Positions 10,814 through 52,307 of a DNA stretch of 64,000 nt are shown here, piece after piece (within the stretch, counting starts at the first letter, position 1; every line of letters starts with the position of its first letter). Source of the stretch: Antedon mediterranea (lineage: Eukaryota > Animalia > Echinodermata); NCBI RefSeq assembly GCF_964355755.1, contig NC_092673.1, positions 19,341,648 to 19,405,647 on the forward strand, given 5' to 3'. Under the pieces are notes generated by a model that was not told where the DNA came from, did not search any database, and was given only the letters and a program-made list of their open reading frames with translations. The position numbers and the translations under genes are program-made.

Positions 10814-11088
10814 AACAGCCATAGCAGCATTTTAATTTTCTTATACTATTTAGTATTAGTTTAGTAATTTTTGGAAATTAAATAAAGTAATAATTTATAC
10901 AATTTGTAACTCATTTTGATTTTATTGCTTCTCTCATTCATATACATCTCCAATACATTGTTATTGGGGAAAAAATGAAATAGTCTGAAAATACAGTACA
11001 TTGTGAATATTTCAACAATTTTATTATGTCTACAATAATATGCTGTGTTCAATTCATTTATATGATTAATAAACATGGTGTCAAGTTA

Positions 11089-18327: not shown

Positions 18328-19842
18328 GTATTGTACTACCTTACTTTATGATCCATTTATTAATAGACTAAAACGCACTGCTTCCCCAGGGCTGTTAGTC
18401 AGGGTATTTGTGTGGGGTATTGTACTACCTTACTTTATGATCCATTTATTAATAGACTAAAATGCACTGCTTCCCCAGGGCTGTTAGTCAGGGTATTTGT
18501 GTGGGGTATTGTACTACCTTACTTTATGATCCATTTATTAATAGCCTAAATGCACTGCTTCCCCAGGGCTGTTAGTCAGGGTATTTGTGTGGGGTATTGT
18601 ACTACCTTACTTTATGATCCATTTATTAATAGACTAAAATGTACTGCTTCCCCAGGGCTGTTAGTCAGGGTATTTGTGTGTGGTATTGTACTACCTTACT
18701 TTATGATCCATTTATTAATAGACTAAAATGTACTGCTTCCCCAGGGCTGTTAGTTAGGGTATTTGTGTGGGGTATTGTTAACCTTACTTTATGATCCATT
18801 TATTAATAGACTAAAATGCACTGCTTCCCCAGGGCTGTTAGTCAGGGTATTTGTGTGGGGTATTGTACTACCTTACTTTATGATCCATTTATTAATAGAC
18901 TAAAATGCACTGCTTCCCCAGGGCTGTTAGTCAGGGTATTTGTGTGGGGTATTGTACTACCTTACTTTATGATCCATTTATTAATAGACTAAAATGCACT
19001 GCTTCCCCAGGGCTGTTAGTCAGGGTATTTGTGTGGGGTATTGTACTACCTTACTTTATGATCCATTTATTAATAGACTAAAATGCACTGCTTCCCCAGG
19101 GCTGTTAGTCAGGGTATTTGTGTGGGGTATTGTACTACCTTACTTTATGATCCATTTATTAATAGACTAAAATGCACTGCTTCCCCAGGGCTGTTAGTCA
19201 GGGTATTTGTGTGGGGTATTGTAATACCTTACTTTATGATCCATTTATTAATAGACTAAAATGCACTGCTTCCCCAGGGCTGTTAGTCAGGGTATTTGTG
19301 TGGGGTATTGTAATACCTTACTTTATGATCCATTTATTAATAGACTAAAATGCACTGCTTCCCCAGGGCTGTTAGTCAGGGTATTTGTGTGGGGTATTGT
19401 ACTACCTTACTTTATGATCCATTTATTAATAGACTAAAATGCACTGCTTCCCAGGGCTGTTAGTCAGGGTATTTGTGTGGGGTATTGTACTACCTTACTT
19501 TATGATCCATTTATTAATAGACTAAAATGCACTGCTTCCCCAGGGCTGTTAGTCAGGGTATTTGTGTGGGGTATTGTAATACCTTACTTTATGATCCATT
19601 TATTAATAGACTAAAACGCACTGCTTCCCCAGGGCTGTTAGTTAGGGTATTTGTGTGGGGTATTGTACTACCTTACTTTATGATCCATTTATTAATAGAC
19701 TAAAATGCACTGCTTCCCCATGGCTGTTAGTCATGGGTATTTGTGTGGGGTATTGTAATACCTTACTTTATGATCCATTTATTAATAGACTAAAATGCAC
19801 TGCTTCCCCAGGGCTGTTAGTCAGGGTACTTGTGTGGGGTAT
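18328..19842. repeat. 89-bp minisatellite (~17 near-identical copies) in the spacer of the inverted duplication
   Basis: Unit gtattgtactaccttactttatgatccatttattaatagactaaaatgcactgcttccccagggctgttagtcagggtatttgtgtggg; period 89. Confidence 0.95.
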
Positions 19843-23365: not shown

Positions 23366-24221
23366 TAATGCTAGCACAGGAGTCATCTTCATTCAGTAAC
23401 ACCAGCATACAGGTCATCTACATGCAGTAACACCAGCATACAGATCATCTTCATTCAGTAACACCAGCATACAGGTCATCTACATGCAGTAACACCAGCA
23501 TACAGATCATCTTCATTCAGTAACACCAGCATACAGGTCATCTTCATTCAGTAACGCCAACATACAGGTCATCTTCATTCAGTAACACCAGCATACAGGT
23601 CATCTTCATTCATTAACACCAGCATACAGGTCATCTACATTCAGTAACACCAGCATACAGGTCATCTTCATTCAGTAACACCAGCATACAGGTCATCTTC
23701 ATTCAGTAACACCAGCATACAGGTCATCTTCATTCATTAACACCGGCATACAGGTCATCTTCATTCAGTAACACCGGCATACAGGTCATCTTCATTCAGT
23801 AACACCAGCATACAGATCATCTTCATTCAGTAATGCCAGCATACAGGTCATCTTCATTCAGTAATGCCAGCATACAGATCATCTTCATTCAGTAACGCCA
23901 GCATACAGGTCATCTTCATTCATTAACACCGGCATACAGGTCATCTTCATTCAGTAACACCGGCATACAGGTCATCTTCATTCAGTAACACCAGCATACA
24001 GATCATCTTCATTCAGTAAACACCAGCATACAGATCATCTTCATTCAGTAATGCCAGCATACAGGTTATCTTCATTCAGTAACACCAGCATACAGGTCAT
24101 CTTCATTCAGTAACACCAGCATACAGATCATCTTCATTCAGTAACACCAGCATACAGGTCATCTTCATTCAGTAACACCAGCATACAGATCATCTTCATT
24201 CAGTAATGCCAGCATACAGGT
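23366..24221. repeat. 31-bp minisatellite (~27 copies), inverted paralogue of 764-1272
   Basis: Unit ggtcatcttcattcagtaacaccagcataca. Confidence 0.95.
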
Positions 24222-24377
24222 GCAATTGAATTGTCATAGCTTTTTTAATGCAAAGGTTTCTGTCTGATGAAATTATGTTTTACCTTTCATATTTTCAGAA
24301 CAGAATGTGTAGGCTTACTTTTACACTAGAAGCTATCAGTATTAATAATTGTTAAATGAAGACACTGTATTTTTGAA

Positions 24378-24726
24378 ATGGAAAGGTACGTTTGTTTTTT
24401 ATTTCAAATCCAACAAAAATAACCAGCTCCAATATGTAAATGTTAAAAACAAATTAAAATGTTTGAATAGTTAGCAATACTTTAAAACTTTCTTAAAAGA
24501 TTATGAAATTATAAATATTACAAATAAAGGGCTCATTCTCATCAAATATAATGATGATATTGATTATTTCCATCAATCATCATTTTCATAAAATAGTGTA
24601 ATAAATCATTATTTCTTACATTTTAACAGGAACAAATTAGAAAAAGCTTTGTTGTACAGGGGTGATTTGCAAACAATTAAACAAATTTGTAAGACGCAAC
24701 CAGATCTTGTGAAATCTATCAATGAG
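24378..24726 (+). CDS. Start exon and N-terminal capping ankyrin exon of the ANK-ROCO gene
   Basis: ATGGAAAG|gtacgt (24378-24385) joins ttttaacag|G AAC...AAT GAG|gtataa (24630-24726), giving MERNKLEKALLYRGDLQTIKQICKTQPDLVKSINE. It ends in phase 0 and so joins any downstream GxTPLH exon. Confidence 0.75.
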
Positions 24727-27700
24727 GTATAATATTATCAAAGAAGAAATTTAATTAAAGTTTAAAATTATAGAGATTGTAATTTTCTTTATTATTTATT
24801 ATAACATTTTTTTATATAATGAATTACAATTATTTTTCAATATCACACTAATGATGTTGGTAAGACCTGCATGCACTGATTAACCACATTAGGCTAAAAA
24901 TAATAATATAAATACACACTGATGATGGGGATAACCTGCATGTACTGATTAACCACATTAGGCTAAAAATAATAATATAAATACACACTGATGATGGAGG
25001 TATAACCTGCATGTACTGATTAACCACATTAGGCTAAAAATAATAATATAAATACACACTGATGATGTTGGTATAACCTGCATGTACTGATTAACCACAT
25101 TAGGCTATAAATAATAATATAAATACACACTGATGATAGGGGTATAACCTGCATGCACTGATTAACCACATTAGGCTAAAAATAATAATATAAATACACA
25201 CTGATGATGGAGGTATAACCTGCATGTACTGATTAACCACTTTAGGCTAAAAATAATAATATAAATACACACTGATGATGGGGGTATAACCTGCATGTAC
25301 TGATTAACAACATTAGGCTAAAAATAATAATATAGATACACACTGATGATGGGGGTATAACCTGCATGTACTGATTAACAACATTAGGCTAAAAATAATA
25401 ATATAAACACACACTGATGATGGGGGTATAACCTGCATGTACTGATTAACAACATTAGGCTAAAAATAATAATATAAATACACACTGATGATGGAGGTAT
25501 AACCTGCATATACTGATTAACCACATTAGGCTAAAAATAATAATATAAATACACACTGATGATGGAGGTATAACCTGCATGCACTGATTAACAACATTAG
25601 GCTAAAAATAATAATATAAATACACACTGATGATGGGGGTATAACCTGCATGCACTGATTAACCACATTAGGCAAAAATAATAATATAAATACACACTGA
25701 TGGGTATGGCAAGCCTCAGCTGTCTGGAGTATTCAAAATATTATATTATTATATCAGAGGTCCCAAATTGGGAAAGTCCATTCGCAGGAGATTTTGTCGT
25801 GAACCACATTCAATTCGTCGGGGCGTCGAAAGTCAACGCGCAGGGAATCGAAAATCAACACGCGTGTCGTTTACGTCTCTTAATTAATTAACTAAATATG
25901 TTACATATACAGTATATACAATATTTACACATAAGTTTGCTTAATTTTTACATAGGTTTATCCATCAGTATTTTTACATTCTTATTTTTTTTATGGACAC
26001 ATCCTCAGTACAAAGAATTAAAAAAATATATACTGTATTTTAACTAAAATTCAGTATATAAAATAATTTAACTTAATTACATAGGCACAGGCCTAGCCTA
26101 GGGCTTCTACTAGGCCCTAGCTAGCTACCATTTTAACCCCCCCCCCCCCAAAAAAAAAATAATAATAAGAAATAACTATTCCGAATCCGTCTTATGCTAC
26201 ATTACGCGAGTTAACATATTATTTCAGATGAAAAACATTGAGTTTTATATTGTTTTATCCATACGTAATTACACTGGCATTAAAGATATAACATTAAAAT
26301 GTAGGCCGTTTATGAGCTATTTCGCCGATTTCTTATCGCTGGGAAATTCCCCACCATCGACATCGATCGAGGAGTAGGCCTAGGCTAGAATAGAGGCCTA
26401 GCGTGCATGCCGGAACGGGTGGATTATTGCTATATAAATAACAAGTTTGAACAAAAGAGCTTACAACAATCTTAGGTAAATTTTTATTAAACGTAGGCCT
26501 ACTTGCTTGGCGAATCCATATGCTCGTATTATCGGATCGTACAGTAAAACCAAATAAAACACCGCCTCAACAACCTCGTGCGATGTGCGATCTGTTGTTC
26601 TTTGCAGCGGATCAACATTGGTAGAGTCCATTAATTATGAGGGTGTTTAAAAATGTAATAACTATTAAAAACGTGTCTCAATCACTGTGTAATCAAAGCG
26701 TTTATTTAGTTAAAACTTGGATCCTCCCAAAATTGATAATCGCGTATTCCGGTGACCACGTGATTGATTCACGGTTGGTTGCACGCTCTTTTTTTTCTAC
26801 GTCCGGCGTGTAGTAACCGTGCATGTTTATATTATTGTTACGGTTTAACAAAGGCAGTGCATACAAATAAAAATACAATAATAGACCACAGAGACTGCAT
26901 GAATAGACATTGTTTCAACATCCTGCCTCACTTTTGTCTAGTTATTTATTGATTATTGTTGACCTGGGCTGAGCCTGGGTGTAACCGTAAATCAATTTGG
27001 CCAAAAATATGGGGAAATTTGAAAATGCGGTAAAAAAAATCAAAATGCGGTAGAAAACGTTGAGATAGCGGTAGCGCGGTAGATGGGTTCTAAAAGCGGT
27101 AGACTACCGCGAGTAGCGGTAGACTTGGGACCCCTGTTTTCACGCTACATCACAAGAGAGGACTCAATCAGATATAAAGCAAGCAGCAATTTTAGGACTA
27201 TAGTTTATAGGTCCCAGCTGCTGGACCCAAAAAACATCTGGGAAAAGTGTCTATGAGGGTTCACGGTTGAACGATTTTGGATTCTTGCCCTTTGATTGGT
27301 TGACTTCAATGCAAATGGTTTAACCTAAATTTGTTATCGTATCTAGTTTAACTTAATTATGATATTAGTTTCATTGGGTGTTAAAAATCAGTACCAAAAG
27401 TATGTACCAACTTTCTCTACCATTGAGTAAATATTCTAGAAGTTGCACTTAATTTACTGAAATTTCTCATTACGCAAATTTATATATAAATTCATTAAAC
27501 TGCTTATTGGCCTCATATTTTTAATATCTGAACATTTGTTTGTACAATTTTATGAAAGTATTTTTTCTCATTACGCAAATTTATATATTAATTAAGTAAT
27601 AGGCTAACAAATCTCTAGATCTGATCCATGGTAAGATAATCTATTAAACCCAATTTCACATAATGTCTGTTGTCGGTATTATACACCAGCAAATTTGCAA

Positions 27701-30700
27701 AAGAAGGTAATGTACAGGGATTTGCTAGTGTAATAGGCTAACATTATATAGATATGCTGTGGTAAACCATTCTATTTTGTTCTACTCATTTATTAATAAT
27801 GATAATTATGATTATTTATCACAATATTTAGTAGCAATTGTTGTTGTTTGTATTGAAAAAAAAAACAAACAATTTTACATAATGTCTGTTGTCAGTATTT
27901 ATAAACTTTATTATGATTCCTTTCCAGAATGGTGACACTCCATTACATTCATATCTGGGGAGCGGATATAGATCTACCTTAGAAATAGTGACTTGTCTCA
28001 TTCAGCATGGGACACCAGTAGCATTGCAAAATAAGGTAATGTACAGGGATTTGCTAGTGTAATAGGCTAACATTATATAGATATGCTGTGGTAAACCATT
28101 CTATTTTGTTCTACTCATTTATTAATAATGATAATTATGATTATTTACCACAATATTTAGCAGCAATTGTTGTTGTTTGTATTGACAAAAAACAAACAAT
28201 TTCACATAATGTCTGTTGTCAGTATTTATAAACTTTATTATGATTCCTTTCCAGGATGGTGACACTCCATTACATTCATATCTGTGGAGTAGTATGTATC
28301 CACCTACCTTAGAAATAGTGACGTGTCTCATTCAGCATGGGGCACCAGCAACATTGCAAAATAAGGTAATGTACAGGGATTTGCTAGTGTAATAGGCTAA
28401 CATTATATAGATATGCTGTGGTAAACCATTCTATTTTGTTCTACTCATTTATTAATAATGATAATTATGATTATTTACCACAATATTTAGCAGCAATTGT
28501 TGTTGTTTGTATTGAAAAAAAAAACAAACAATTTCACATAATGTCTGTTGTCAGTATTTATAAACTTCATTGTGATTCCTTTCCAGTCTGGTGACACTCC
28601 ATTACATTCATATCTGAGGAGTGGATGTACTGCACCTACCTTAGAAATAGTGACGTGTCTCATTCAGCATGGGGCACCAGTAGCATTGCAAAATGAGGTA
28701 ATGTACAGGGATTTGCTAGTGTAGTAGGCTAACATTCTATAGCAGGCCTCGAATTTTACCGCGGCCAGTGCCGTCGGTGCCCTCCCAGTTGGCCTCAATG
28801 CCCTCGAAAATTAATAGCACCCACGGCCACTACTGGCCTGCCCTTTTTTTGCGTTGGCCGTGAGTGCCCTTCCCGAGTTTTACCACAATAAAAACCACTA
28901 AAGTAGATAGAAAATAATGTCAAGAATATCGGACGAGGCGCAAAACTATCGCCTGTCTTCGTTGCAAGGGGATTTCCCTAAACGCATTTAGAGAAAACAT
29001 CGAACATATTTATATAACCAAAACAATATCGTCCCGGCCGCCGTGCGTGGTAAATAATGGTATAGATAGTACATTAAAATACAGGGGTGTACACTTTTAA
29101 TAATAAAGCTAAAAACGTTCCTCGATCGGAGGTCACTGAAAGTATTAAAGTCGCACCACCCCCGCCTCAATAATCGAGCTAGCCGCCTTCGTTGAAAAAA
29201 AAATTACACGCACTCCTTGTCCTAGCCAGCCTATCCTCCCGCCGCCGATCCGATCAACAAACACACGCGATTCAATACATTGGGAAAACAATTCCATTTG
29301 ACGCACACGCACCCTCTGATAAGAAATTTCACACGACGTCGTCGTACGTGTGAGAGTACGAAGGATCGGTCGTTGGAAAAACAATTCCTTTTGACGTACA
29401 CGCACCCGCTGATATGAAAATACCATGTGCGTTCCTGCATGGTGTAGTCCATTCCATTATACGTGTAAAATTAGGGGTGTCAACTTTTAGTACTAAAGTT
29501 AAACCGGTACCTCAACCCGAAGATCGTTGGAAGTATATTGTATTTATATTTTATCGCACCCACCTCAATAATCCAGCCGACAGATCATCGAAAAATCTTG
29601 TTTAACGACGTCGTACACTAAATTAACAAACGCGTTTTTACCGAACTCAAGGAAATGGTATAGTCCACAATACACGTGCAGAAGGCTAAACGAGAGAGAG
29701 GGGTTGGCGTCCGTCCGTCCGTGTTTTGAATTCTTATGAATATGGATTATACTAACAAAAAAGCTTCAGAAATCGAAACTCGGAAAATAACAATAATTTA
29801 TATTCTACAACATAATGTCATTGGCTTGATTTTTACCGTGGTTAACACTCTGTGTATGAATAGTTGTAGTTAAGGCCTACAAACAAATTGTTTTTGTAAC
29901 CTGTGTTCTCCGTCCGCTACGCCTTTAGTGCTGCTAAGTGCTTGCTGTTGTTAGGGTCTTTACCCGTTGGGCCTGGCTTCACATGCCTTTTTTTGATCGC
30001 ATTGTTTGAAACTAAACGAAACAACTGTGAACGCTAAACATCGTACCTTAATAATTATTATTTATATGGATCGTAAATACACGTAATATTTATATGAAAT
30101 ACAAAAAGATGTAGACAGTCCTCTCCTACTACTACTACGCAATCTGATGAATAGGGGAAATACCCCCAAAAATGTTTGCGGGTAGAATTTTTTTTTTTGA
30201 AAAAAATTCCACCCGGGCGCTCAACCGGAAACAAGCTATTTTTAAATTTTGGCCTATTTATTAAAATATTTTTTAATTTTGGCCTTGGTGCCCCTTCGAT
30301 TTAAAACAAATGGCCTTGGTGCCCTCCCATTTGGCCTTGGTGCCCCTCAAATCAATGAAAACCGGAGGCCAAATGGCCTTGCCCCTAAAATCCCCAAATT
30401 CGAGGCCTGCTATAGATATGCTGTGGTAAACCATTCTATTTTGTTCTACTCATTTATTAATAATGATAATTATGATTATTTACCACAATATTTAGCAGCA
30501 ATTGTTGTTGTTTGTATTGACAAAAAACAAACAATTTCACATAATGTCTGTTGTCAGTATTTATAAACTTTATTGTGATTCCTTTCCAGAATGGTAACAC
30601 TCCATTACATTCATATCTGGAGAGAAAATATCCACATACCTTAGCAATAGTGACTTGTCTCATTCAGCATGGGGCACCAGCAACATTGCAAAATAAGGTA

Positions 30701-33700
30701 ATGTACAGGGATTTGCTAGTGTAATAGGCTAACATTCTATAGATATGATGTGGTAAACCATTCTATTTTGTTCTACTCATTTATTAATAATGATAATTAT
30801 GATTATTTACCACAATATTTAGTAGCAATTGTTGTTGTTTGTATTGACAAAAAACAAACAATTTCACATAATGTCTGTTGTCAGTATTTATAAACTTCAT
30901 TATGATTCCTTTCCAGTATGGTGAAACTCTATTACATATATATCTGTGGGCTGGATATACTGCACCTACCTTAGAAATAGTGACGTGTCTCATTCAGCAT
31001 GGGACACCATTAGCATTGCAAAAGAAGGTAATGTACAGGGATTTGCTAGTGTAATAGGCAACATTCTATAGATATGCTGTGGTAAACCATTCTATTTTGT
31101 TCTACTCATTTATTAATAATGATAATTATGATTATTTACCACAATATTTAGTAGCAATTGTTGTTGTTTGTATTGTAAAAAAACAAACAATTTCACATAA
31201 TGTCTGTTGTCAGTATTTATAAACTTCATTATGATTCCTTTCCAGTCTGGTGACACTCTATTACATTTATATCTGGGGAGTGGATATAGACCTACCTTAG
31301 AAATAGTGACTTGTCTCATTCAGCATGGGACACCATTAGCATTGCAAAATAAGGTAATGTACAGGGATTTGCTACTGTAATAGGCAACATTCTATAGATA
31401 TGCTGTGGTAAACCATTCTATTTTGTTCTACTCATTTATTAATAATGATAATTATGATTATTTACCACAATATTTAGTAGCAATTGTTGTTGTTTGTATT
31501 GACAAAAAACAAACAATTTCACATAATGTCTGTTGTCAGTATTTATAAACTTTATTATGATTCCTTTCCAGGATGGTAACACTCTATTACATTCATATCT
31601 GGGGAGTGGATATAGACCTACCTTAGAAATAGTGACTTGTCTCATTCAGCATGGGACACCATTAGCATTGCAAAATAAGGTATTGTACAGGGATTTGCTA
31701 GTGTAATAGGCTAACATTGTATAGATATGCCGTGGTAAACCATTCTATTTTGTTCTACTCATTTATTAATAATGATAATTATGATTATTTACCACAATAT
31801 TTAGCAGCAATTGTTGTTGTTTGTATTGACAAAAAAACAAACAATTTCACATAATGTCTGTTGTCAGTATTTATAAACTTCATTATGATTCCTTTCCAGG
31901 ATGGTGACACTCCATTACATTCATATCTGAGTAGTGTATATGCACCTACCTTAGAAATAGTGACGTGTCTCATTCAGCATGAGGCACCATTAGCATTGCA
32001 AAATAAGGTAATGTACAGGGATTTGCTAGTGTAATAGGCTAACATTGTATAGATATGATGTGGTAAACCATTCTATTTTGTTCTACTCATTTATTAATAA
32101 TGATAATTATGATTATTTACCACAATATTTAGCAGCAATTGTTGTTGTTTGTATTGACAAAAAACAAACAATTTTACATAATGTCTGTTGTCAGTATTTA
32201 TAAACTCCATTTTGATTCCTTTCCAGAATGGTGACACTCTATTACATTCATATCTGAGGAGTGGATACCCTACCTTAGAAATAGTGACGTGTCTCATTCA
32301 GCATGGGACACCAGTAGCATTGCAAAGTAAGGTAATGTACAGGGATTTGCTAGTGTAATAGGCTAACATTCTATTCTATTTTGTTCTGGTTTACCACATT
32401 ATTTAGCAGTAATTTTTACTGTATTGTCTCATATTATGGCATATCTGCAGCATTGCAAAATAGGGTAATGTAGGCTTACAAAGAATTGTCAGGACAATTT
32501 CACATTTTATTGTTATCAGTATTTATAAACTTCAACTTCAGTATCAATTAGCCTCCATATTAATCAATAGTATTACTACCTCAAAGAGTAGTATTATTTA
32601 ATCAGACTTACAGATATAGAATTCTCAAGTGTTTGATTTTTTTCACATTTTTCTCTTTTTACACATAGCACATTCTAACAAGTTTGTTTTGATTTAGATA
32701 TTCATTTATAAGTCAACTATAATTGTAATGTGTTGTTGTTGTTTTAATATTTCATTTGTATCTGGATAGTATCCAAATATTATTTTCTTTGAAAGTTTAT
32801 AGTAAAACTATTTGTTGTTTTATATTATGGCTCAAACATTTTAACACATCTACCTACTGTTCCAAAGTAAACTTTTATTCAATTTATCTCTCTCTCTCTC
32901 TCTCTCCTCCATCTTTCAATGTTGAAGGCGGTAGACTATAAACAGCAGCACTCAAGTTTTGGTTTGGATACAGGAGTTATAGGTGGCGCACTGTACAAGT
33001 TGATGTCATTTATTAGCAAATAGTAATTTCTATTCACGTCCTAATTTACAACCAATGTTAAAAAATAGTAAATCTATGTGTTATCACATGATGCTCTTTC
33101 ATCCAATCTCTAGATGGTAAATGTTTGAGCCATGACATAATACTGTATGTATGTGATGCATAATTAAAGTGTGTTATATTGTATATCAATAATTTCTCAA
33201 AACTACTAATAACTAAACCCATTTTTTTAATAGGATGGAAATACACCTGTCTCTCTTTTAGAAAGTAACAGGTGGATAAAGGAGCATAGTAAAACTGAAA
33301 TTTTAAACTTCTTAGAAGGTAAGTGAAGTTTTAATTATTGAAATTTTAGGATCAACTAGTTTCATTGCAAACGATAACAATTTGACTTCTTGTTCCAAGT
33401 GAAGAAGAATGTCCAGATAAAGAAAATTAACATTTATGATATATCATTCACAGGTTTATTATAGATTAAATAATTCAGTGGGATAGTAGTATACATGGAA
33501 GTTGTGATATGTTGCAAGATGTAAATTATTTTGCTATTAATACGATAAAAATAACACAAAAACGCAAACTTTAAAATTCCTTTGAAATAAAAATATTAAA
33601 TAAATCATTTTTCAAATCAAATCAATCTCTTTATTCAATACATCAAAACAGTACACATAACAAAAATAAAGAGATTTTAATGATGATGATGATGATTTTA

Positions 33701-36700
33701 AGATGAAAGGGACCTTCAATAAACCTCAAGGGGCTTTTGATAGGAGGCTTTACTTTAAACTAGTTACAATAATCGGATGGGGGATATGCATTGTTAAGGA
33801 ATATTTGAACTTTATTAATTGCACATAAATGTAAAATGTAGATTTTTTTTTTTTAATGTAATCTATTTTATATATAATGTACAATTGGTATTCGCATTCA
33901 AGGCAAACAATTTACGATAGGAGGAGATAAATATTGAATATAAAAATCTAATTTTCTTGTTAAATCCCAGTTTTTGTTTCCACAATGGATGAATTTCCTT
34001 CACACATTTTAAATAATAATTCGTCTTCTTCGAGGAGCTGAATCACCGGATTTTCAGCGCGCCGTGCGTACCAGGTTACTACCGTAAATGATGGCGCTTA
34101 ATTAAAAGTTCTTAGTAGATATAGCTCTATATCTATTAGCCTTAAAAGTTATCCCCTTAATAGATTTAGCTCTATTACCTATTAAGCACCTACTAATAAG
34201 TAGATTTTAGGTAGAATTTAGATAGTTCCTAATAGGTTTTACCTCATTAGCATAATTCAAAACCCCCACTAATAGTGTTAGATAGTTTTTTCACTATTTT
34301 CAATCTGTGAGTAACACAGTTGTATGCATCTATCTATTGTCTACTATAATAGCTATACCATGGGCTACCAGCAACCTATTAATAGACATAAACAAACTGA
34401 TAATAGCCAGTAACTGTTAATAAGCTATCTATTTTATACAATAGATAGATATGGACTACCAGATAGCTATTAGAAATCTATGAGTATCATATCTATCTAT
34501 CTACTGTCTACTTATTATAGCTATACAAGACTACCAATGACCTATCAATAGACTATAAAGAAACTGATAATAGCCAGTTAAATATTAATCAACTATCTAT
34601 TTTATAGCTGGGAAGTAGTCGTTCCATCATTGACTCATTGAGTTAAAATCCTTAGTAGGCGAGATAAAAAGGTCTACTAAAAAACTACTAAAAATAGAGC
34701 TATTTCTCCTTAAGTCTACTTAAATCTACTAATTTTTTTACTATGGGTAAAACCAATAGACAAATTCAAACTCTTCCTTCCCACATTCGCATTCGAGGCA
34801 AACAATTTACGATAGGAGGAGATAAATATTGAATATAAAAATAAAACATTTTCTTGTTAATCCCATTTTTTGTTTCCACAATGAATGAATTTTCTTCACA
34901 CATTTTTAAGCCAGCTTAAGAATACTATTTTTCTGTATGTAAAATTAAGCATCATACATGTGTTATTCTAAACACCAAGTCCCACAAAGCATAACCAAGC
35001 TCTACCAAGTGTATAAAGAACAGTGCCCTTATTGTAGGCCTTTAAAAATGCAATTCCAGGTCTATATTGGCAAAATTCAGCCCAAACCATGGTGGGCTCA
35101 AGTTCAAGTTATCTTTATTGTGTTTTCACACAGGTATAAAAACAAAATTGGTTACTGGTCATAAAACAGAATATAAATTAAAACATTTAAAAAGTTCAAG
35201 GCATATTAAAAACTTACGATAGGTGGTCAATAATTCCTACTGCCAAATTGTGAATCATACCAGTTATTCATTTCAGGATTACTTTATTTTCACTTTACAC
35301 AGTGAAACCATCCTAATCAACCGTATGTTGCTAGAAACGATTTAGATTCAGGATCTCTGTCAAAAAATGTTGCATAACGCCTATATGTTTGGATGAGTTT
35401 GAGTTCCACACATTTTTTAGGACATTAATAACTGTAGTTGTTAACTGTATACATTTTAGTTTAAAAAAATACATTATTATTATAGTATCCAGAATGAATG
35501 AGATTTACCATTTTCATGTACAGTCGATTGCTTGTACACAGTCACCCACAAGCTTTTATATAACCTTATACCATTGAAAAAGTTTAAAGATACCATATGA
35601 CAATTCAAGAGTTTTGCCAAGCTGTGACTTTTAATATAGTGTTTTTTATGAAAATATGTAATATGTAATATTTTTGTTTTGGTATTTTTTTAGATTTACC
35701 AAGTACTGTTGATGAGCAATTTCAAACACAATTTCAGAAACCGACAAGTGACAAACAGAAAACAAAACTTCGTAAGCCAGAGAGTGGTGAGTTTAATAAG
35801 AATCACAAGAGCTGCTGTATGTTGTATGATTGTATCTATATATAAATTTACGTAAGGGCAAAAACGGTAAATCGTGCGTTATTTCTAGAATGTTTACTCG
35901 ATGGTATATAAAGTTGGTTCGTACTTTCGGTACTGATTTTAACCGCCTGATGTAACCCTGTTTACTAATTAAATTGAGTTCGATTATTAGTTATTGACGA
36001 TTAAAACGAATTTAGGTTCAACGATTTGCCCCAAATAGGGGTGTTTTCCGATCGTGGTATACACTGTCTAATGGATGTCAATTTGAAAAATACCCGCACA
36101 CAATAATACGAGGACACTTCGCATTTTCCTATCTCCTCCTACGATAATTGTTTTTAATAGCTGAAAACCGGTTGACCAGTTCGAGTACAGTATCATGATG
36201 TTGAAGACAGGCCGATTTTCTTTAAAAAATGCTATTTTGATACATGTAATATACGTTTTTACAAATGTATTGATTTGTGATGAATGGAACATTCCAAATT
36301 ATTTTGTTTAACCATAGAGGTATAGATTTAGATTTATGGGCCCCCTTGGAGAATAAACATAAATAGTATTGCAATGCTGTACAATACTGTTAAGGTATTA
36401 ACCACTTTTGATCGCAATTTGAATCGCAAATTTCTTACTGTGAGTGTTGGTACTGTTAGATATAATATAAACAAATATACAAATAAACTTTATTACTGTG
36501 AGTGTGGGTAGGCCCTACTGTTAGATTATAAACATATAATATACAAATAAATAAACGTTATTACTGACAGTTGCTTCTCAACGTTTGTATTAATTAATAA
36601 TTTAAAAATATATAAACGTACGTAGTGGTGTATCGTTACATGTACTTTACTATTTCAATCGACTATGACAGTGAGAGTTTTAACAAAGTATTAAATCGTA

Positions 36701-39700
36701 AATGTTTTACTGTATTTAGTGGTATATTATTTATAGGCCTATAAAACATTAAAAACAATATTTCGTTACTGAGTGGATAAGAATATATTTTAAAATGTTT
36801 CCTCTTTGTACCTATCTTCTTCCCCCATACCTCAACCCTTAATGTTACATACAAAACACAAATTGGGTTTGTTTAAATGAGTCCAAATAAAAAAATTTGA
36901 CTCATTTTGTTTCTCTCTCGGAAGTAATTCCCAGGGTGCTAATTTTAGCTGACTACATAAATCATCGTGTATATTTATTCGTTTCTGTAAACGACAATGT
37001 ATTATAGTCCTGCAGTACGTACATTTGAAATCTCCATTTTTTTCTCGCTGGAAAATACTGTGTATTTGAGAACCATCTGTAGGCACGGTCGACCTAGATA
37101 GTACGCGAGCGAAGCGAGCGTGCCATCTAGTCTATATATAATTTAACACAATTGTGATTAAAATGGGATTTCAGTAAGGAGAGAATTAGACGCTAATGTT
37201 ATTTAAAAAAAGCATTATTTCTGTGCAGTACTGTAAAAAAGGTAAAGTCGAAACCTAAGCTAATGCTAACGGCCGTGGTGCCCATCTCCATTTCCTTAGC
37301 GTTTGGGCCAGACTCCACTAAGTGTGTATGTTCGTGGGGGGTACGCCACTCCTCCCGCACAAACGAGTCTGATTTACCTTCCCAGTACTTTTTACATACC
37401 GGTACCCATTTCTATCACCTGGGTGGGGAGGAACAATGTGGATAAAGAATCTTGCTCAAGGACTCAACACTGCAGTGACCGAGCCGGGGCTTGAACCGAC
37501 AACCTCTTGATTGCAAGTCCAATGCTCTAACCACTGCGCCACAGTGCTCCAATAGTACTGTAAAAAGGCGAAAAAGTGTGCAACTAATAACAAATGGAGA
37601 GATTTTATTTATCATAAATAAAACAAACAGTTGATTGTTTCCATCCAAAATACTGTAATAATGGAATGGAGCTAGTTTGCAGATTTATGTGGCATGCTTG
37701 ATTGATGATTTTTTTTTTTAACTTTATTTACTCCAGATGTTTTAAAAATCTATTAAAATCTTGATTCAATTTTCAGATATTCCATCTGATATTGCTGCTC
37801 GTGAATTAGAGTATCAGGAAGCTTACAAGGAAGCTTTGAAAGGAGGATCTGTCGCAGTCAATCTTGGAATGCTTAAGGTGATTGGACAGGAAGGAGTGGG
37901 TAAAACATGCCTCATAAATGCCTGTCTTGGAAAGATGTAAGTAGTTGGACAGTAAAATTGAAATTACAAAATACATGTAGGTACTGCCTAATTATAACAA
38001 TAATAGATAATAGAATTAAATTTTAACATTGTTTTGTAATTTTAAATGAAAGATCATTTTAATTGTTGACTAAATAACTGATTTAAAATGTGTATTTTAT
38101 AAATAAAGACTATTGAAATAGTAACTACTGGTATCTATAATTAAAAAGAGAAAATTTAATTTTACAGCACTAAAAATGAATGACATTCATTGTTGGTTTC
38201 AAATTATTATATTATTATTATATGTATCTCAGATTTGAGGAAGAACATAAAGTTACAGATGGCATAGCAGTGATAAGGACTGTAAGCACAACATGGACAG
38301 AGGCTAAAGCTGATAGTGGTAAACATGAATACAAATTAGCATATTACTCTTCCCATCATCATAGTCAATGTAACAATATTTATCTTTGATCTCATTATCA
38401 TAGACACAAACAGGCCCACATGGAGACATAGAATGGAATTCAATAAATGCATACAACTGTAGTATGGTGTCAACAGTCATATTTTCACATACATTACAAT
38501 TGTTACTTTATGATCCCTTAACATGCAATCTATTGTTTGTTGATGTACTGTAATTGTAATTTTACATTAAATAATCAATCAGTTAAAGTATTGTCACCTA
38601 TTAATGTATCTGCTGAAATAATACATACAAATGTCTTTTTTCTGTACAGGTAATCCTTCAAAACAGTATACAAAAATCGTCACTGACAAACTGAGAGAAA
38701 AGAAAACCAAAGACGTATGTCAGTGTAATGAAAACATAAAATGAATAAAGTAGCACCTACAGGACTATTGCAAACCAGACACTTACGCACGTATTCTTAA
38801 ACCGGACTGTAGTCGTAGTTCTAGCTAAAACTAAAAAAATGACGTCATTTTAATTCATAAACCGAACTTCAACTAAATCACCGACTAAATCAGGCCAACC
38901 TCGACTAAATCGAGACGGATTTTGATCGATTTTTTTAGTCCTGGAGGGGGCAGGCTAAATGGTCGACTAAATGGTTTTTAAACGATGTTTATAAAAAACG
39001 TAACAGTCATTGAGTTGTTATATTGGCCAGATATTGAAGAATGAAATATCTATATTTATATTAGCTTAATTAAATATACATTGGTATAAGTTATAATAAT
39101 GAAAATCATCTTTATTTACAACTGTATACAAATTACATTATTTTCTTCGCGCAAGTCCGACTTGAACTACGTCACGCCATAGCGACAATGGGAGATGCGG
39201 CAATTCACCACGCGATGGAATGTTTAGGGGGCCTAGCGCTTTCTTGTCACGCTAGGAAGTGCGTGGTTCGTCGCGATCATACTTTGTTGGAGGCCTAGAA
39301 AATATGAAAGTTACCGTACCGCCATGGTTCCTAAATATATTTTAAAGATTTTGTTTGTTGTTAATCAAAAGTACTTCACTGTTAAATTAATACTGATCTT
39401 GTTCTAATAATTAACGATTAAAATTATTTTTCATGTATAGTCCTGATGCGTAAAAAGTTTTGTAAGAAAATGGAAAGTGATATCAATGCGCAAAATTTCG
39501 TCTGCTCCTCAAATACTCTCTTGTCATTGGCCAATGTTTAGCCTTTGTTACCCAGACGTGTGCAACTCGACTAAAAGCTCGACTTCATTAAGTCGAACTG
39601 CAAACTTCGACTACTTCGTTTTTTAATCGAATTTTAAGTAATAGCTCGAACTACGACTTTTTCAAGTCGAACTTCGAACTACGACTAAAGTCCGGTTTAA

Positions 39701-42700
39701 GAATACGGGCGTAAGGGTTTCTTTCTAAATGAATCAATGAGGCATTATGATTCTTTTTCAATCATTTTATAATCCAATTTACTTAAAAAATTAAGTTGAT
39801 TTTGCTTTTGAGAGTAAATAATATTAGTTTTCTCTTATATTAAATTGTAAACAATACTGTATTTAACTTTGAATAAACATTTGTTTCTTTTTTATATCCA
39901 TTTATTTTTTTTTTATGTGTCAGATTGACATGAAACCACCTATAGATGATGAGGATGGTATTGTTGTTGATGACAACAATGGTGATTACAAAAATGATGG
40001 TATGTAACTTTCCATTAAATTCTAATTATTATTATTATATATTACATAGCCTATGTAAATACGCGAACGTGATTGGTTGAAACTGCATCACATGACTACC
40101 GCTGCGAGGATAGTAAATCGTATATATCCTCGAGAACGATGATATTGACTGAGTAATTTTCCCGTAATTATCGTGTCCCCTGTCATTAATCATATAAATT
40201 ATCGAGTACGATGATATTGACTGTGTAATTTTTGTGTGCAACATTCGCGTTTGCCGATAAATAAACAAAACTATTTAAACTATGCATACATAGCGCCCTC
40301 ATTTATTTTTAGTCCTCCCAAGAGGTGATGAAACACCGTTTGTGATTGGTTAATACTCACAGTAGTATCGGGTACGCGCGCGACGCACTGAACATCTGGT
40401 GATGATTCGACTCGAAAGAAGACGAATTATTATTTATTCGGCCTACCTGATAATATTATTATTATTAATGTAGGCTTATTGATGGAAATTCTTCTGTTAT
40501 TATTTAAACGACCTAGGCTAGTGAATATGTTATTGTCAAGGAATCATTAATTAGTAATTATCTGTATATTATTCTTCGAAAGGTAAGGTGTCTGGGCAGC
40601 TTGTTTACATACAATACAAAAAGGAGGCCTACCTAGCCTAGCTACCCGACCCAGCAGATATTCTACTTATTGTAATATATATATTATATCGGTAAAATAT
40701 AAGATTAGACATCCCCTCGGGAATGATATTAAGTTCTTGGGAATTATATATTTCCCTCAGCTGGCGCTTCGGGAAATATATATTCCCTCGAACATAATAA
40801 TATTCCCTCAGGGATGTCTAATCTTATATTTAGCCTCTAAGCAGTCAATATCTGTATAATATTACATTTTTTGTAGTCAAAACACTAATTTGCAATTATC
40901 TGTTTGCAATTTCTGTCATATTAAGTTTGTGCTGTAGTTATTTGAAACAGATTATTAATTAGATTTTCCAATTTAAAGTAACTTTTAATTTTTCTATAAA
41001 ATTATTAAATTTATGTGATCAGAGTTGGAGGTAAAGCAACCTATCAAGTGTAACAATTATGGTGACATACTTTTCTACCTCTACTCTGACTATAATGATG
41101 ACAACAATGATGACGACTCGGTGTAACAATGATTATGAAGACTGCAATGATGATAATGACAACAATGATGATGACTCGGTGTAACAATGATTATGAAGAC
41201 TGCAATGATGACAACAATGATGACGACTCGGTGTAACAATGATTATGAAGACTGCAATGATGACAACAATGATGACGACTCGGTGTAACAATGATAATGA
41301 TAATGAAGACTGCAATGATGATAATGACAACAATGATGACGACTCGGTGTAACAATGATTATGAAGACTGCAATGATGATAATGACAACAATGATGACGA
41401 CAATGATGACGACTCGGTGTAACAATGATTATGAAGACTGCAATGATGATAATGACAACAATGATGATGACTCGGTGTAACAATGATTATGAAGACTGCA
41501 ATGATGATAATGACAACAATGATGATGACTCGGTGTAACAATGATTATGAAGACTGCAATGATGATAATGACAATTACAACAATGATGATAATCAGAACA
41601 ACTATAACAATATGTTAATGACTTTTACAATGATTAAAATAATGATGCTTGTTTACATGTGTTGAGAGTGACCAAATTGTGTTTCCACTACAGATACTGA
41701 TAGAGCTACTGAAGCTATTCCATTTGATACAGATCAGCAGTTAGATAAAGATGTAATCAAGAAACTTGAGGAAAAAAAGGAGGTCCCATTGGAAGAAACA
41801 TTTAACATCTGGGATCATGGAGGTCAATTAATATACCATGGTATACATCGCGTAAGTTATAATATATGTATTTGCCTTGAAGTTAATATTATATTGAAAT
41901 TGTTTAAATACTTTGTACAGAGCCAGTTAAAAGAAAATGTCTCTGTATATACTAACATAATGGTATGACCAAGGTTTAATTTGTTCATTCAGTAATCGCA
42001 AAATTCTTTCCATGGTACTGCTTTATATAAATTGGTATTACAAATTTTGCCTACGTCAACAAAAAAAGTATTTTCAGTAACTGTTTTCAATCACTGATTT
42101 TAACAGTGTTATATGAATTTGTACTAGAAAAATGCTTTAATAAAAAGAGTATCAATAGTAAATGTATAAACACAGTTTATAAAAAGACAAATAAAATGAT
42201 ACTTATTTATTAAGCCTTAAAGCATATTAATCAAATATTTGAATAAAAACAAATTGTGTTTTTGCAGATGTTCATGACATTACAAGCACTTTATATTGTA
42301 GTGTTCGACCTAAGTGTAGACCTCAATGATCCTGCTGTTTATATTGATTCCAATGGAGTAAGTATTTTGCTATATATTTTATGCATTACAAAGAGTTTTA
42401 TTTCATACCTTCCAAATGAGCTGCATACATTTACATATTTGAAACCTAACCGTTTTGATTTTAATTGTGGTTAGAAATCATTTACTTCTTCATTTCATTT
42501 TTAATTGAACAAAGATAAATGTTTTTTAAACTAATCTTTTTTTTTTGACAGGAAATGTATCAACATCATTGGACCAATCTCCAGTTCATATTATCTTACA
42601 TCCTGTCAGTTTATTCTCATAGTCGTATTGTGGAAGAAGATGAAGAGAATGAAGTTCACAAACCAACTATCCTTATTGTGGGTACACATAAGGGTAAGCT

Positions 42701-45700
42701 TGGTGAGACTGAAAAAGAACAAAATTATGAGGTTAATACTTACATTATTAAAATTAGCAATCAATCAAGTATACATTTCTGTTCTAAAAGCTAATGTAAA
42801 AAAACTAGCTACTAAGGTACTGTATCGAATACATTCATATCAAAAGTTTTTATATGAATGTATTCTATACAGTACTCTAATAGGACTTGAAGTATTTAGA
42901 TATTATTTATAAAAAAAAAACAGTTTTTACCCCATGTTTTCATTTATTTAAATTGTTTACAACCAGGCACAGAAGGCCTTTAAAAAGATTCGAGATGCAC
43001 TTAAACAGAAAGAGTTTATAAAACATGTGTTCCACGTATATTTTGCCGTTGAAAACAGCCAAGAAACTACAGATAAGAGCTTTAGTGATCTCAAACAAGT
43101 TATTGATGCACTTATGACTGCTTTAGAGAAAGAAGTTCCTTTAAAGTGGATGCGTTTTCGATGTGATCTACAAGATCTAAGGAGAAAAAAACATTTTTCT
43201 TTGTGTCCAGTTAAAGAGGTAAATTTAATTGGCATCATTCCTCAGTGTTTTGGTTTCAGAATAGAAATTTTTATTTTTTATTTATTTATTCAATTTTCTG
43301 CCATATACAATACAAAGAAAACAAAACAATTATAAAAGGAGGAAAGGAAAGACCAAACAGGTGCTAAACACCTATGCTAGTTGGTCAACCCAGAACATAC
43401 AGAGCACAGAAAGAAAGAGATAAATAAAAAAAATAATATTACGTCCTACAATTAAAGCATCTATAAAATATTTTGGAAATAGTAGTATTTAAAAAAGTAT
43501 AAACAAAAGACTCTACCCACTATTATATATAACTACAGTACTATATAATAATATTGATTATATTTTTTATTCACTGCTCTAAATCTGAATGGTAAAATAA
43601 TGTTAATGTAATATAATATAAAATATATAATCCTATCCATGCTGTTATGGTTTCCTATCTGAAAAAATCATGAGTATTTTTTATGGAATATTTGCATTGC
43701 AACACTAACAATGCATTCTGTGAGAAAAATTGCAGTTACGTTTCCCCCATCCTGAGAGTGACGTTTTCCTTCAGATCCAAAATTATACAGTACATGTTTT
43801 CAAGTAAATTTCAAAACATTTCAGGCGGTAAAGGACAAAACTAATGTTGGAAATGTATACCTACCTTTGGTTTAATATTTTTGATATTTTATTTGTATCT
43901 GAATTGTAAACAATTTTGTCTTTAGCTCAAAATGATGGCAAGTAAGAATGGTATTGCAGATGAAAAACAACAATCCTTTCTTCTTAACTTTTTGTACGAT
44001 CTTGGTGAAATTGTTTACAGGCCTGACAACAAATTATTGAAAGATAAAGCGGTGTTGGATCCGATGCAGCTGGTTGAAATTGTTACTACATTTGTGACGG
44101 TCGTTCCTCCCGAATTTCCAGTAAGTATTCTCATGAAAATGTTAATGCAGTGTTCTGTGAGGAAATAATAGAGGTACATGTGAATTCCTATAGGTGCTAT
44201 AGTATCAAAAGCAATATCTGATAGTTTCATTAGTTTAACATTGAGGGGTATATTGTATATTAAATGTAAACCATGTTATTGCATCTACAAGTCTTTATAA
44301 AGGTAAAGGTAAAGGTATTCATATTTGTCCTCAAGCTTAACTGGAAACTGAGGAAATTCGGATTAGGCCCTCCACGGACCCACGGCAGCCAGCAGTGCAG
44401 CGCCTACCAGATTAGCACACCGGGAGACGATCCCCTACTCTTTTCGAATAGTGTACCAAGTTCTTTAACGTGCACCAAGTTCTTTAATGTGCATCCTTTC
44501 AGATTCTAAATTGTTTGATAACTTAATAAACACAACATTCTAAGTATGGCTAATTGGTGGTGTTTTTTAGCCGGCCATGTATATCGATGCATTTGATAAA
44601 CTTGACAAAGGCATACTGGAAGAAAAGTTGTTGCGAAAATTATGGAAAAAGCGTGAAGTTGATGACGGAAAGAATTTTGAGTTTCTTGTAGCACTGATGA
44701 TTCAATTAGGTTTTATTTGTGAAAGGAAGACAACCAGCAGCCAAGATGTGGCAAGTACATCTACAGTAGGTTTTGTTCAGTTATCTTTTCTAACATGTTT
44801 TGCATGCAAGATTGTGTAAACAAAAATTGTTTTGGTATGATACATAATTGTTGAAATTTTACAAAAATTTCAAAATATTTGTAAGGTTATGACATATTTT
44901 GGTTAAACATCCTGCTGAAAGATGTTTTTATCATATACAGGAAATGATCTTTACTTATTAAAAGAAATCTAAATGGGATTTTATAAATCAACAATTTCAG
45001 GAATCTGTTGGAAAGCGATCATTCTTTGTGCCACTACGCCTTGCTTTCAAGACATCAAGTGAAGTGAAACCAGTGTCTGATGATTCACAATCTATCAGTA
45101 TCTATTACGACTTTAAGGGATATCTGCCAGATGTATTGTTTCCATATATGATTATTGATTTCCTCAACAAATTTCAAAAGAAAGGTGTTGACCCAATACT
45201 CTTGTATAACCATGCTGAACTTTACTTCGATCAAGATCATAATGTGACCTTATCTCTTGTGAAATTTGTGACTATGGAGGATGAAAGAAAGTTCTTGTTA
45301 AAGGTACTGTATCATATAATTTGTTGTGAATAAATCATAATTTAATCTAAGCATAAACTCAAATTAAAATATCAAAGCATCACTTTTCTTCTTTTTTCCA
45401 GGTGACTATTAAAAGAACTCCTGCTTGTAATGAAACAAGTAATGATGAACCCTCTTCTGAAGCATGTCAAGAGGTTTGTTATCATTTCATATATGCAAGG
45501 GCGGATCTAAATTTTCAAGGTGCCCTTTTTCAGAGGTTCAATATTTTAATCGTGTGACATATGTGGCAAATTCCATTTACCATGTCTCCGACCTTTAAGA
45601 GGGAGTGTGGCCTAAAATGGTTCAAATACTTAGGCTCGGAAGTGCCCTTTTCTTCTGGGAGGTAAACATTTGAGGCATGTAACATTTTGATAGTGATAAT

Positions 45701-51792: not shown

Positions 51793-52307
51793 TCCCCTGA
51801 ATAGGGGTGTCCTAAAGAAGGGATTTACTCGAGTAGTAAAGAGGAGGGATGTGTCCCCTGAATAGGGTTCTCCTAAAGAAGGGGTTTGCTCCAGTAGTAA
51901 AGAGTAGGGGTGTGTCCCCTGAATAAGGTTGTCTTAAAAAAGGGATTTACTCCAGTAGTAAAGAGGAGGGGTGTGTCACCTGAATCTGGATGTGTCCCCT
52001 GAATAGGGGTGTCCTAAAGAAGGGGTATACTCCAGTAGTAAAGAGGAGGGGTGTGTCCCTTGAATAGGGATGTGTCCCCTGAATAGGGGTGTCCTAAAGA
52101 AGGGGTTTACTCCAGTAGTAAAGAGGAGGGGTGTGTCCCCTGAATAGGGGTGTCCTAAAGAAGGGGTTTACTCCAGTAGTAAAGAGGATGGGTGTGTTCC
52201 GTGAATAGGGATGTGTCCCCTGAATAGGGGTGTCCTAAAGAAGGGGTTTACTCCAGTAGTAAAGAGGAGGGGTGTGTTCCCTGAATAGGGATGTGTCCCC
52301 TGAATAA
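51793..52307. repeat. GC-rich minisatellite (59/78-bp units) downstream of the gene
   Basis: Unit gtgtcccctgaataggggtgtcctaaagaaggggtttactccagtagtaaagaggaggg. Confidence 0.9.

Follow-up and report, generated by a model that had tools for sequence, protein, structure and literature searches.

A probably diversifying nine-exon ankyrin array at the head of a Roco-type gene with a predicted tandem death effector domain in the feather star Antedon mediterranea

In the 64,000-nucleotide stretch of Antedon mediterranea DNA analyzed here (the window), nine exons at positions 27928–32331 make up the ankyrin array of one intact ankyrin-ROC-COR gene, which is also predicted to encode a tandem death effector domain (DED). 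Diversifying selection probably acts on these exons, which would bind the ligand of a likely intracellular sensor. The gene model has 30 coding exons, encodes 1316 amino acids without a single internal stop and carries the array at its head. All internal junctions of 29 of its exons have canonical splice sites; the first coding exon was read by hand. Since the reading frame is intact, a pseudogene is ruled out, and codon-structured variation together with the splice joints rules out a plain satellite.

All coding exons are on the forward strand. The predicted first coding exon (24378–24385) supplies an ATG and a Met-Glu-Arg start split with the next exon, an N-terminus identical to that of the paralogues P0001, P0035 and P0040, and is followed by an N-capping repeat exon (24630–24726); residues 1–108 of the model are 80% identical to P0035. 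The ankyrin exons lie at 27928–28035, 28255–28365, 28587–28697, 30590–30697, 30917–31027, 31246–31353, 31572–31679, 31900–32007 and 32227–32331, with lengths of 108, 111, 111, 108, 111, 108, 108, 108 and 105 nt, respectively. The location, lengths and loop peptides given in a first-pass annotation made from this DNA alone are correct for all nine. Every exon is flanked by an AG acceptor and a GT donor, is in phase 0 at both ends (9/9) and encodes one ankyrin repeat of 35–37 residues. Pfam PF00023 (Ank) matches all four exons scanned (exon 1, E = 1.2e-4, and exons 2, 3 and 5), two of them above the curated cut-off. As proteins the repeats show a mean column identity of 82% (65–83% to unit 2), and as DNA whole units are 93–96% identical. 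Because a unit consists of a phase-0 exon and an intron of ~219 nt, the array can grow, shrink or exchange units with the frame unbroken.

The array introns measure 218–221 nt, except for the one after unit 3, which reaches 1892 nt because a 1667-bp element has inserted into it. This element (28743–30409, no strand assigned) is a non-autonomous DNA transposon with terminal inverted repeats, a 6-bp target duplication and no long open reading frame; it went unmentioned in the first-pass annotation. Two repeat remnants, both on the strand of the array, lie at its ends within the window: at 27651–27706 the 3' part of an intron is joined directly to the final bases of an exon, with the donor retained and the acceptor deleted, and at 32332–32532 a decayed intron copy with deletions follows the last unit. 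No inverted exon copies occur in the window.

Why are these exons more variable than the introns that separate them? Among the nine introns preceding the exons, with the 1667-bp element removed, 14 of 212 columns are variable (16 extra alleles) and the mean pairwise difference is 2.5% (3–8 bases). Over the 35 exon codons that align unambiguously, a mean of 10.4 of 105 nt differ, and for the 30 non-loop codons taken by themselves the difference is 7.2%; the selection tests all use 35 of 38 columns, omitting three loop columns of ambiguous alignment. Exon lengths change by whole codons in all nine units, while introns carry length changes of 1–2 nt, and only three clear silent variants exist in the exons (ACT/ACG, AGC/AGT and TAT/TAC). 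The earlier description of few-base intron differences, whole-codon length changes and scarce synonymous variants thus survives recounting. Replacement changes reach 0.39 per site versus 0.075 in the introns, a roughly five-fold excess (P = 3e-8), rather than the even spread over exon and intron that the annotation had set against its own reading. The silent exon rate, 0.15, is not significantly different from that of the introns (P = 0.17; for the flanks, P = 0.81), which indicates that the whole unit is being homogenized or was recently copied and that replacements are in excess. Concerted evolution of the introns, as first proposed, is therefore correct as to homogenization but not as a property of introns in particular. 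A diversity-generating mutator is ruled out, silent sites not being significantly raised. The units have a mosaic makeup with respect to each other, with 46 of 105 informative site pairs incompatible and no correlation between intron and exon distances (rho = -0.02).

Diversifying selection on the ankyrin exons, already suggested in the first pass, has moderate support. Minimal changes at the 35 codons number 31.5 amino-acid-changing to 3.5 silent, and 17 to 1 outside the loop, with pN/pS of 2.7 for the 35 codons and 3.5 for the 30 non-loop codons. A binomial count test gives P = 0.043 to 0.006 for kappa of 1–4 (0.038 to 0.009 for the flanks), and neutral simulations under four nulls, with rate variation or recombination, were as extreme in 6, 2, 3 and 2 of 300 runs; a bootstrap restricted to the non-loop codons gives a borderline P of 0.053. 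Omega under M0 ranges from 2.1 to 5.9 across eight tree and alignment combinations, with P < 0.05 in seven. All of these tests use nine short sequences. Site models of the kind that the annotation recommended, here M2a and M8, return P ~1e-5 (four trees, two alignments), but a 2dL of at least 20.5 also turns up in 4 of 38 neutral simulations that include rate variation and recombination, and for this reason we do not treat them as primary evidence.

Where do the replacements fall? They are concentrated in three places: the beta-turn, the end of helix 1 and the loop that separates helices 1 and 2. To place them we used a model of the paralogue P0033 (pLDDT 88.7; best fold matches to DARPins, TM ~0.75–0.8) and DARPin numbering. 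The six positions that we take to be randomized in DARPins (2, 3, 5, 13, 14 and 33) hold 13 of the 31.5 replacements (P = 0.007), versus one in the 11 codons of helix 2. The proposal that variation sits on the DARPin surface is upheld by this enrichment but not in every part: position 33 is invariant, position 2 changed once, positions 7, 10 and 30 vary, and the strongest hotspot, a 2–4 residue insertion in the length-variable helix-1/helix-2 loop, is absent from DARPins. The variable residues originally listed are as stated, but exon residue 5 and the linker after helix 2 also vary; neither is a binding-face position, and the linker accounts for 5 of the 31.5 replacements. Units 6 and 7 carry one and the same loop.

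Could the array simply have expanded in tandem recently under relaxed constraint, its loop being prone to mutation or slippage and its replacement excess a product of chance and recombination, without diversification for binding? Off-surface, framework or destabilizing-looking changes (TPLH with Leu for Pro in four of nine units, Glu for Gly in unit 8 and the five linker changes) also fit weak purifying selection, the window holds many tandem repeats elsewhere, and recombining neutral runs match the site-model statistic. We nevertheless consider this explanation unlikely. A silent share as low as that observed arose in just 2–3 of 300 neutral runs with strong rate heterogeneity and recombination, helix 2 is nearly free of replacements beside the six surface positions, and the exons keep their frame through every length change while the introns do not keep to triplets. 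Moreover, paralogues vary at the same positions, and a frame of 1316 codons has stayed intact. Our preferred reading remains that selection likely favors new binding surfaces, hence the excess of replacements in the ankyrin exons.

The nine-exon array opens a gene of the Roco type. It is followed by a C-capping repeat exon (33234–33318) that matches P0034 and a linker exon (35694–35786) whose peptide is identical in P0005, P0018 and P0034. The seven exons of the ROC GTPase domain (37777–42731) lie at 37777–37936, which carries the P-loop, 38233–38318, 38650–38714, 39924–39999, 41694–41851, 42268–42357 and 42552–42731, and the six COR exons (42967–46061) at 42967–43218, 43926–44120, 44571–44765, 45001–45303, 45402–45473 and 45842–46061. 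Pfam Roc matches weakly on one exon (E = 0.015) and COR-A matches one exon at E = 1.2e-7; the P-loop and switch motifs are present in the ROC part, and the paralogue P0011, with 80% identity across 863 aa, clears the cut-offs for both families. With COR directly after ROC, its sequence classes the gene as a Roco with predicted GTPase activity. Two short linker exons (46871–46906 and 47350–47391), which lie in partly duplicated blocks and whose peptides recur in P0018, lead to the predicted tandem DED exon (50172–50711) and a last coding exon that carries the stop (50871–50890). The AlphaFold model of the DED exon product has a pLDDT of 89.9, and all 21 rows listed by Foldseek are DED structures of caspase-8, cFLIP or vFLIP (best TM 0.69–0.72 over ~180 columns, probability 1.00, E = 1e-3 to 2e-3); the Pfam DED profile scores E = 0.002, under its curated cut-off. 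The model predicts two packed six-helix death-effector bundles, like the prodomain of caspase-8 and cFLIP. This Roco context was missed in the first-pass annotation.

How might such a gene work? Unequal crossing-over or gene conversion would homogenize introns, silent sites and framework together, keeping units near-identical, while selection would retain new surface residues and in-frame loop changes. The ROC-COR GTPase would change state once a ligand binds the ankyrin array, and a caspase-8- or FADD-like partner would then be drawn in by the tandem DED, leading to cell death or immune signaling; by analogy, repeat, switch and effector would divide the labor as in NLRs. Large clustered families with death-fold effectors are the usual pattern of pathogen-driven receptor families, which argues, though not decisively, against the view that the surface selection is real and the ligand the animal's own, namely an allorecognition molecule, a fast-evolving host partner or a guarded protein. 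Fungal NLRs of the same pattern act in allorecognition (PMC13449251), and brown-algal Roco genes respond to non-immune stress as well (PMC11378527). We give a self-ligand a small chance, slightly below that of relaxed constraint.

More remote still is the idea that the introns are conserved for a function of their own, in controlling splicing for exon skipping or as a recombination signal, so that they are no neutral yardstick and diversity arises mainly by alternative splicing or programmed rearrangement. Every exon is in phase 0 and could be skipped, alternative splicing of brown-algal Roco LRR exons is described in PMC11378527, and related intron sequence occurs in sequencing runs labeled organisms B and C. 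However, whole-unit homogenization accounts for the similarity of silent exon sites and introns, one intron has tolerated a 1667-bp insertion, no Rfam family matches within 24000–34000, and the comparison of replacement with silent changes is independent of the introns.

Which known systems does this gene resemble? Brown-algal (Ectocarpus) LRR-Roco proteins (PMC3341825, PMC11378527) have an N-terminal array of 24-residue LRRs with one repeat per exon. Here too a Roco GTPase carries an N-terminal array of single-repeat exons in the same phase at both ends, positive selection on a predicted binding face (here by count tests and enrichment, the site models not being robust) and an expanded clustered family. 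The algal genes have spare or inverted repeat exons in introns; the broken copies adjoining the present array are the two same-strand remnants at its ends. Unlike in the algae, the repeat is an ankyrin of 35–37 residues, the host is an animal, the hotspot takes in a length-variable loop, the C-terminus is a predicted tandem DED, array introns are ~97.5% identical and the window is free of inverted exon copies. Alternative splicing and exon exchange between genes are algal features; the contig joints seen here run head to tail. A second parallel is with fungal NLRs of the Podospora Pa_3_8560 type, whose ankyrin repeats are highly conserved; these show concerted evolution and selected concave-face and hairpin sites (PMC4986451, PMC13449251), a pattern that the present gene resembles. 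In both, the ankyrin repeats are near-identical and a single polypeptide unites a repeat sensor with an NTPase switch and a death effector, predicted as such in the present gene; here, in contrast, the switch is ROC-COR rather than NACHT or NB-ARC, the sensor is N-terminal and each repeat occupies an exon of its own, accompanied by an intron. The mean column identity of 82% found here lies just below the fungal definition of at least 85% identity over 100 residues. The fungal type is polymorphic in repeat number among individuals; the present analysis covers one haplotype.

DARPins are the best sequence matches in the PDB and share an invariant framework with variation at 3, 5, 13 and 14. Their module is 33 residues rather than 35–37, with a 3-residue gap at the loop, whereas here most variation lies in the inter-helix insertion, 33 and 2 are conserved, and 7, 10 and 30 vary. 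The phrase "natural DARPin-like repertoire" used in the first pass does not hold for this array, which is not a set of separate binders but one domain of a natural signaling protein. Among animal Roco proteins, DAPK1 and LRRK1/2 combine ankyrin repeats with ROC-COR, and DAPK1 also has a C-terminal death fold. The gene described here likewise joins ankyrin repeats, ROC-COR and a predicted C-terminal death fold, but whereas those are single-copy conserved kinases with divergent repeats, it lacks a kinase, is part of an expansion specific to its lineage, and its repeats are near-identical and probably diversifying.

A bolder reading, which we put forward tentatively and with more doubt than belief, is that feather stars possess an NLR-like repertoire built from Roco GTPases: dozens of genes with one-exon ankyrin cassettes reshuffled through near-identical introns, a CDR-like length-variable loop and a caspase-8-type tandem DED, so that individuals, and perhaps even transcripts or cells, would vary in repeat number, order and loop. 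Our literature search, with most subscription journals outside it, found no animal ankyrin-Roco genes reported to work in the brown-algal or fungal manner. If our reading of the array is right, an echinoderm lineage would have independently reached the brown-algal Roco and fungal NLR design of interchangeable repeats, concerted evolution and a selected binding face, though with another type of repeat, with a death effector of the animal kind and with a loop that varies. It would offer a candidate, open to testing, for a new type of crinoid intracellular immune sensor, support an immune role of Roco GTPases (the LRRK2 family) and show natural diversification of the ankyrin scaffold at a loop kept fixed in designed libraries.

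Sequence similarity places the gene in an expanded family with Antedon proteins as its closest hits: a COR-exon search returned 31 hits, 30 of them Antedon proteins, 24 on one 36-Mb contig. Paralogue models have 2–8 repeats each, counted by sequence pattern, and 30 repeats from 10 A. mediterranea proteins vary at the same positions and in the same loop. These 30 and the nine described here display 33 distinct loops of 4–10 residues, none common to both sets. Three contigs of sequencing run X5 join ankyrin exon end to exon start, head to tail, including at exon 9; such joints, at 82% likeness, may be those of paralogues, and that X5 is RNA is a guess. They are absent from the three other runs examined, and none of the 15 of 16 joints listed links exon 9 to the C-capping exon. 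In run X1, intron letters common among copies (e.g., T at 32125, 11 contigs) are missing from all nine introns, which implies that other arrays or alleles have their own intron type; the summed X1 contig depth over the unit, 45–100 times that over the single-type intron that follows, is not a copy number. An ankyrin search with P0032, in which three proteins were inspected by eye and the others by sequence pattern, listed mostly generic ankyrin proteins at 25–40% identity, and among the 120 matches listed the only further loop-extended repeat noticed was in P0139, also from Antedon, with a loop of up to ~20 residues.

The nine ankyrin exons that the first-pass annotation had placed at 27928-32331 were borne out, together with the loop peptides listed for them. 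Each is in phase 0, preceded by an AG acceptor and followed by a GT donor, has a length of 105, 108 or 111 nt and encodes a repeat of 35-37 residues; all four exons scanned match Pfam Ank, two of them above the cut-off. The introns are 218-221 nt long, and that following unit 3 is interrupted by a 1667-bp element (28743-30409) that ends in terminal inverted repeats and has duplicated a 6-bp target. This element is non-autonomous, has CAGG ends and occurs once in the window. Unit remnants adjoin the array at both ends. The ankyrin-exon array is real and well defined.

To what kind of gene does the array belong? Exons chosen by hand from splice signals and paralogue matches yield a predicted model of 30 coding exons and an uninterrupted frame of 1316 residues, running from the start through an N-cap, nine repeats, C-cap, linker, ROC GTPase, COR and two short linkers to a last domain. 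The predicted fold of the last large exon (pLDDT 89.9) has 21 listed matches, all of them caspase-8, cFLIP or vFLIP DED structures (best TM 0.69-0.72, E about 1e-3), and the last domain is predicted to be a tandem DED. Of 89 candidate proteins, 31 were matched by one COR exon used as query. Antedon mediterranea supplied 30 of them, at 65-97% identity, with 24 encoded on a single 36-Mb contig; the remaining one is from Anneissia japonica (50% identical). These matches make a feather star of or near Antedon the likely source of the window, and place the gene in a large, clustered family of Roco genes. An ankyrin profile search recovered 10 Antedon proteins among 85 matches, several with ankyrin, Roc and COR annotation and two with DEDs too. 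Blocks 46800-46923 and 47275-47403, 79% alike and each holding one short linker exon, are a second, older exon duplication within the Roco gene. In the annotation of the Antedon protein P0001, a tandem pair of ROC-COR modules comes after two ankyrin repeats; the protein is a double Roco unless its gene model is a fusion. Judged by eye, P0001 and three other family members (P0003, P0012, P0013) have hydrophobic, membrane-anchor-like C-terminal ends, with or without DEDs, as do some brown-algal Roco proteins.

Contigs from X5, a run guessed to be RNA and made from a different sample under the same organism label, show that exons of the ankyrin family are joined head to tail by splicing. Three connect 32329 back to 32225, which, give or take two letters, brings the end of an exon against the start of one, and four continue from an exon end into another ankyrin exon; the 32329-32225 joint was not found in the other three runs compared. 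Since these contigs were matched at 82% likeness, the splicing is shown for exons of the family, not for the window gene.

As had been noticed from the sequence, the exons are more variable than their introns. Exons differ at a mean of 10.4/105 bases over 35 unambiguous codons, compared with 3-8 bases (2.5%) between pairs of the nine introns preceding them, in which, with the element removed, 14 of 212 columns vary. The replacement rate is five-fold that of introns (0.39 vs 0.075 changes per site, P 3e-8), silent exon sites show no significant difference from introns (0.15 vs 0.075, P 0.17), and the silent rate in the flanks is 0.045 per site. Since silent sites are not significantly above introns, homogenisation or recent copying of whole units is the simplest reading, rather than the homogenisation of introns in particular that was first proposed. 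The four-gamete test fails for 46 of 105 informative site pairs, and between-unit distances in introns and exons are uncorrelated (rho -0.02). The units are mosaics of the kind expected from gene conversion or unequal crossing-over; recurrent mutation may also play a part. Intron letters that many copies share in sequencing run X1 occur in none of the nine introns here, which means that other arrays or alleles have an intron type of their own.

Are the exon changes selected? With three ambiguous loop columns left out and nine short repeats as the whole sample, Nei-Gojobori pN/pS is 0.118/0.044 over 35 codons (bootstrap P 0.021) and 0.087/0.025 over the 30 non-loop codons (P 0.053). Counting distinct alleles per codon, which requires no tree, gives 31.5 replacement changes and 3.5 silent ones, where silent changes would be expected to make up 25-31% (P 0.043 to 0.006), and 17:1 in the flanks alone (P 0.038 to 0.009). 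Among neutral simulations conditioned on 30-40 changes (300 runs per null), 6/300 were as extreme without rate variation or recombination, 2/300 with gamma rate variation, and 3/300 and 2/300 with recombination added. Codon models M0, M1a and M2a, in our own implementation, put omega under M0 at 2.1-5.9; comparing M2a with M1a gave statistics of 14-30, and each of the four trees marked exon residues 1, 3, 11 and 13 as selected. Under a null with rate variation and recombination, 4/38 neutral runs reached the observed 20.5, so the codon models do not count as proof in their own right. Positive selection is supported with moderate strength, and the diversifying selection first proposed stands at that level on the count tests, pN/pS and simulations, but not on codon models.

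Where on the repeat do the changes fall? DARPins are the best PDB sequence matches of the repeats and the best fold matches of a model of the paralogue P0033 (pLDDT 88.7), in which helix 1 stops at 13-14 in repeats 1 and 3. Exon residues 1, 3, 8, 11 and 12 are ankyrin consensus positions 3, 5, 10, 13 and 14. We take positions 2, 3, 5, 13, 14 and 33 to be the randomised set of first-generation DARPins; these six codons carry 13 of the 31.5 replacements, equalled or exceeded by 11302 of 1623160 six-codon sets (P 0.007). The suggested DARPin-type surface is supported by this enrichment, but position 33 is invariant, position 2 changes once, and the main hotspot is a stretch of 2-4 extra residues, lying between helices 1 and 2, which DARPins do not have. 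Positions 5, 13 and 14 vary in the matched DARPin sequences, and the randomised positions are placed on the concave face (PMC8229355). Helix 2 has one replacement across 11 codons and the linker five; the TPLH proline is leucine in four of nine units. Positions 10, 13 and 14 also rank with the most variable in 30 repeats taken from 10 Antedon proteins, and 33 different loops of 4-10 residues were counted among 39 repeats. Antedon protein P0139 has repeats of 35-51 residues, with aromatic-rich stretches of up to about 20 residues in the same loop. P0058 of Haliotis rufescens, with further Pfam matches PF20720 and PF00656, has a long array of near-identical 33-residue ankyrin repeats, variable after helix 1, which suggests a parallel design in abalone.

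We consider it probable that this is the diversifying ankyrin array of a Roco sensor, with recombining units, selected surfaces, a ROC-COR switch and a predicted DED effector. Recombination among near-identical units would both reshuffle and homogenise the array, and selection would keep new surfaces. The array would bind a fast-changing ligand, the ROC-COR module would act as the switch, and the predicted DEDs would recruit caspase-8- or FADD-like partners. How else might cassette structure, mosaicism, and an excess of replacements clustered at surface positions and in the loop, all within an intact Roco frame, be read? Relaxed constraint on the array is unlikely; that a self ligand drives the surface selection is about as unlikely; and to functional introns, with diversity arising from splicing, we give very little credence.

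The evolutionary design, even the selected ankyrin surfaces, has precedents, and the statistics here come from nine short repeats. In brown-algal Roco genes each LRR has an exon to itself, exons are shuffled, and selected residues lie on the concave side (PMC3341825, PMC11378527); ANK-Roco proteins are listed for Gonium and oomycetes (PMC11378527). In Podospora NLRs the ankyrin repeats are near-identical and polymorphic in number, and selection is seen at five positions, almost all of which belong to the concave face and the hairpin (PMC4986451, PMC13449251). Sea-anemone Roc-COR genes with TIR or death domains have been proposed as immune genes (PMC5094078). The window gene works like the brown-algal and Podospora systems, but belongs with neither because its repeat is ankyrin, not LRR, and its switch ROC-COR, not NACHT or NB-ARC. 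A literature search that took in few subscription journals turned up no account, for crinoids or any other animals, of a Roco family with diversifying ankyrin exons.

Other elements lie in the window. On the minus strand, 58554-62646 was judged by eye to hold a Ty1/copia-like LTR retrotransposon: two long overlapping ORFs, of 1025 and 382 aa, are separated by a break in the frame and carry gag, integrase and reverse-transcriptase-like motifs. At 10370-15261, MULE-like transposase pieces (minus strand) face a P2RX7_C-domain ORF (plus strand), likely one decayed DNA transposon. A 31-nt satellite forms two arrays on opposite strands (759-1255 and 23382-24221), about 92-93% alike. Five further tandem arrays, three of them in Roco gene introns, occupy 18327-19842 (89 nt), 24839-25702 (71 nt), 41098-41574 (58 nt), 46157-46539 (88 nt) and 51793-52306 (61-80 nt).
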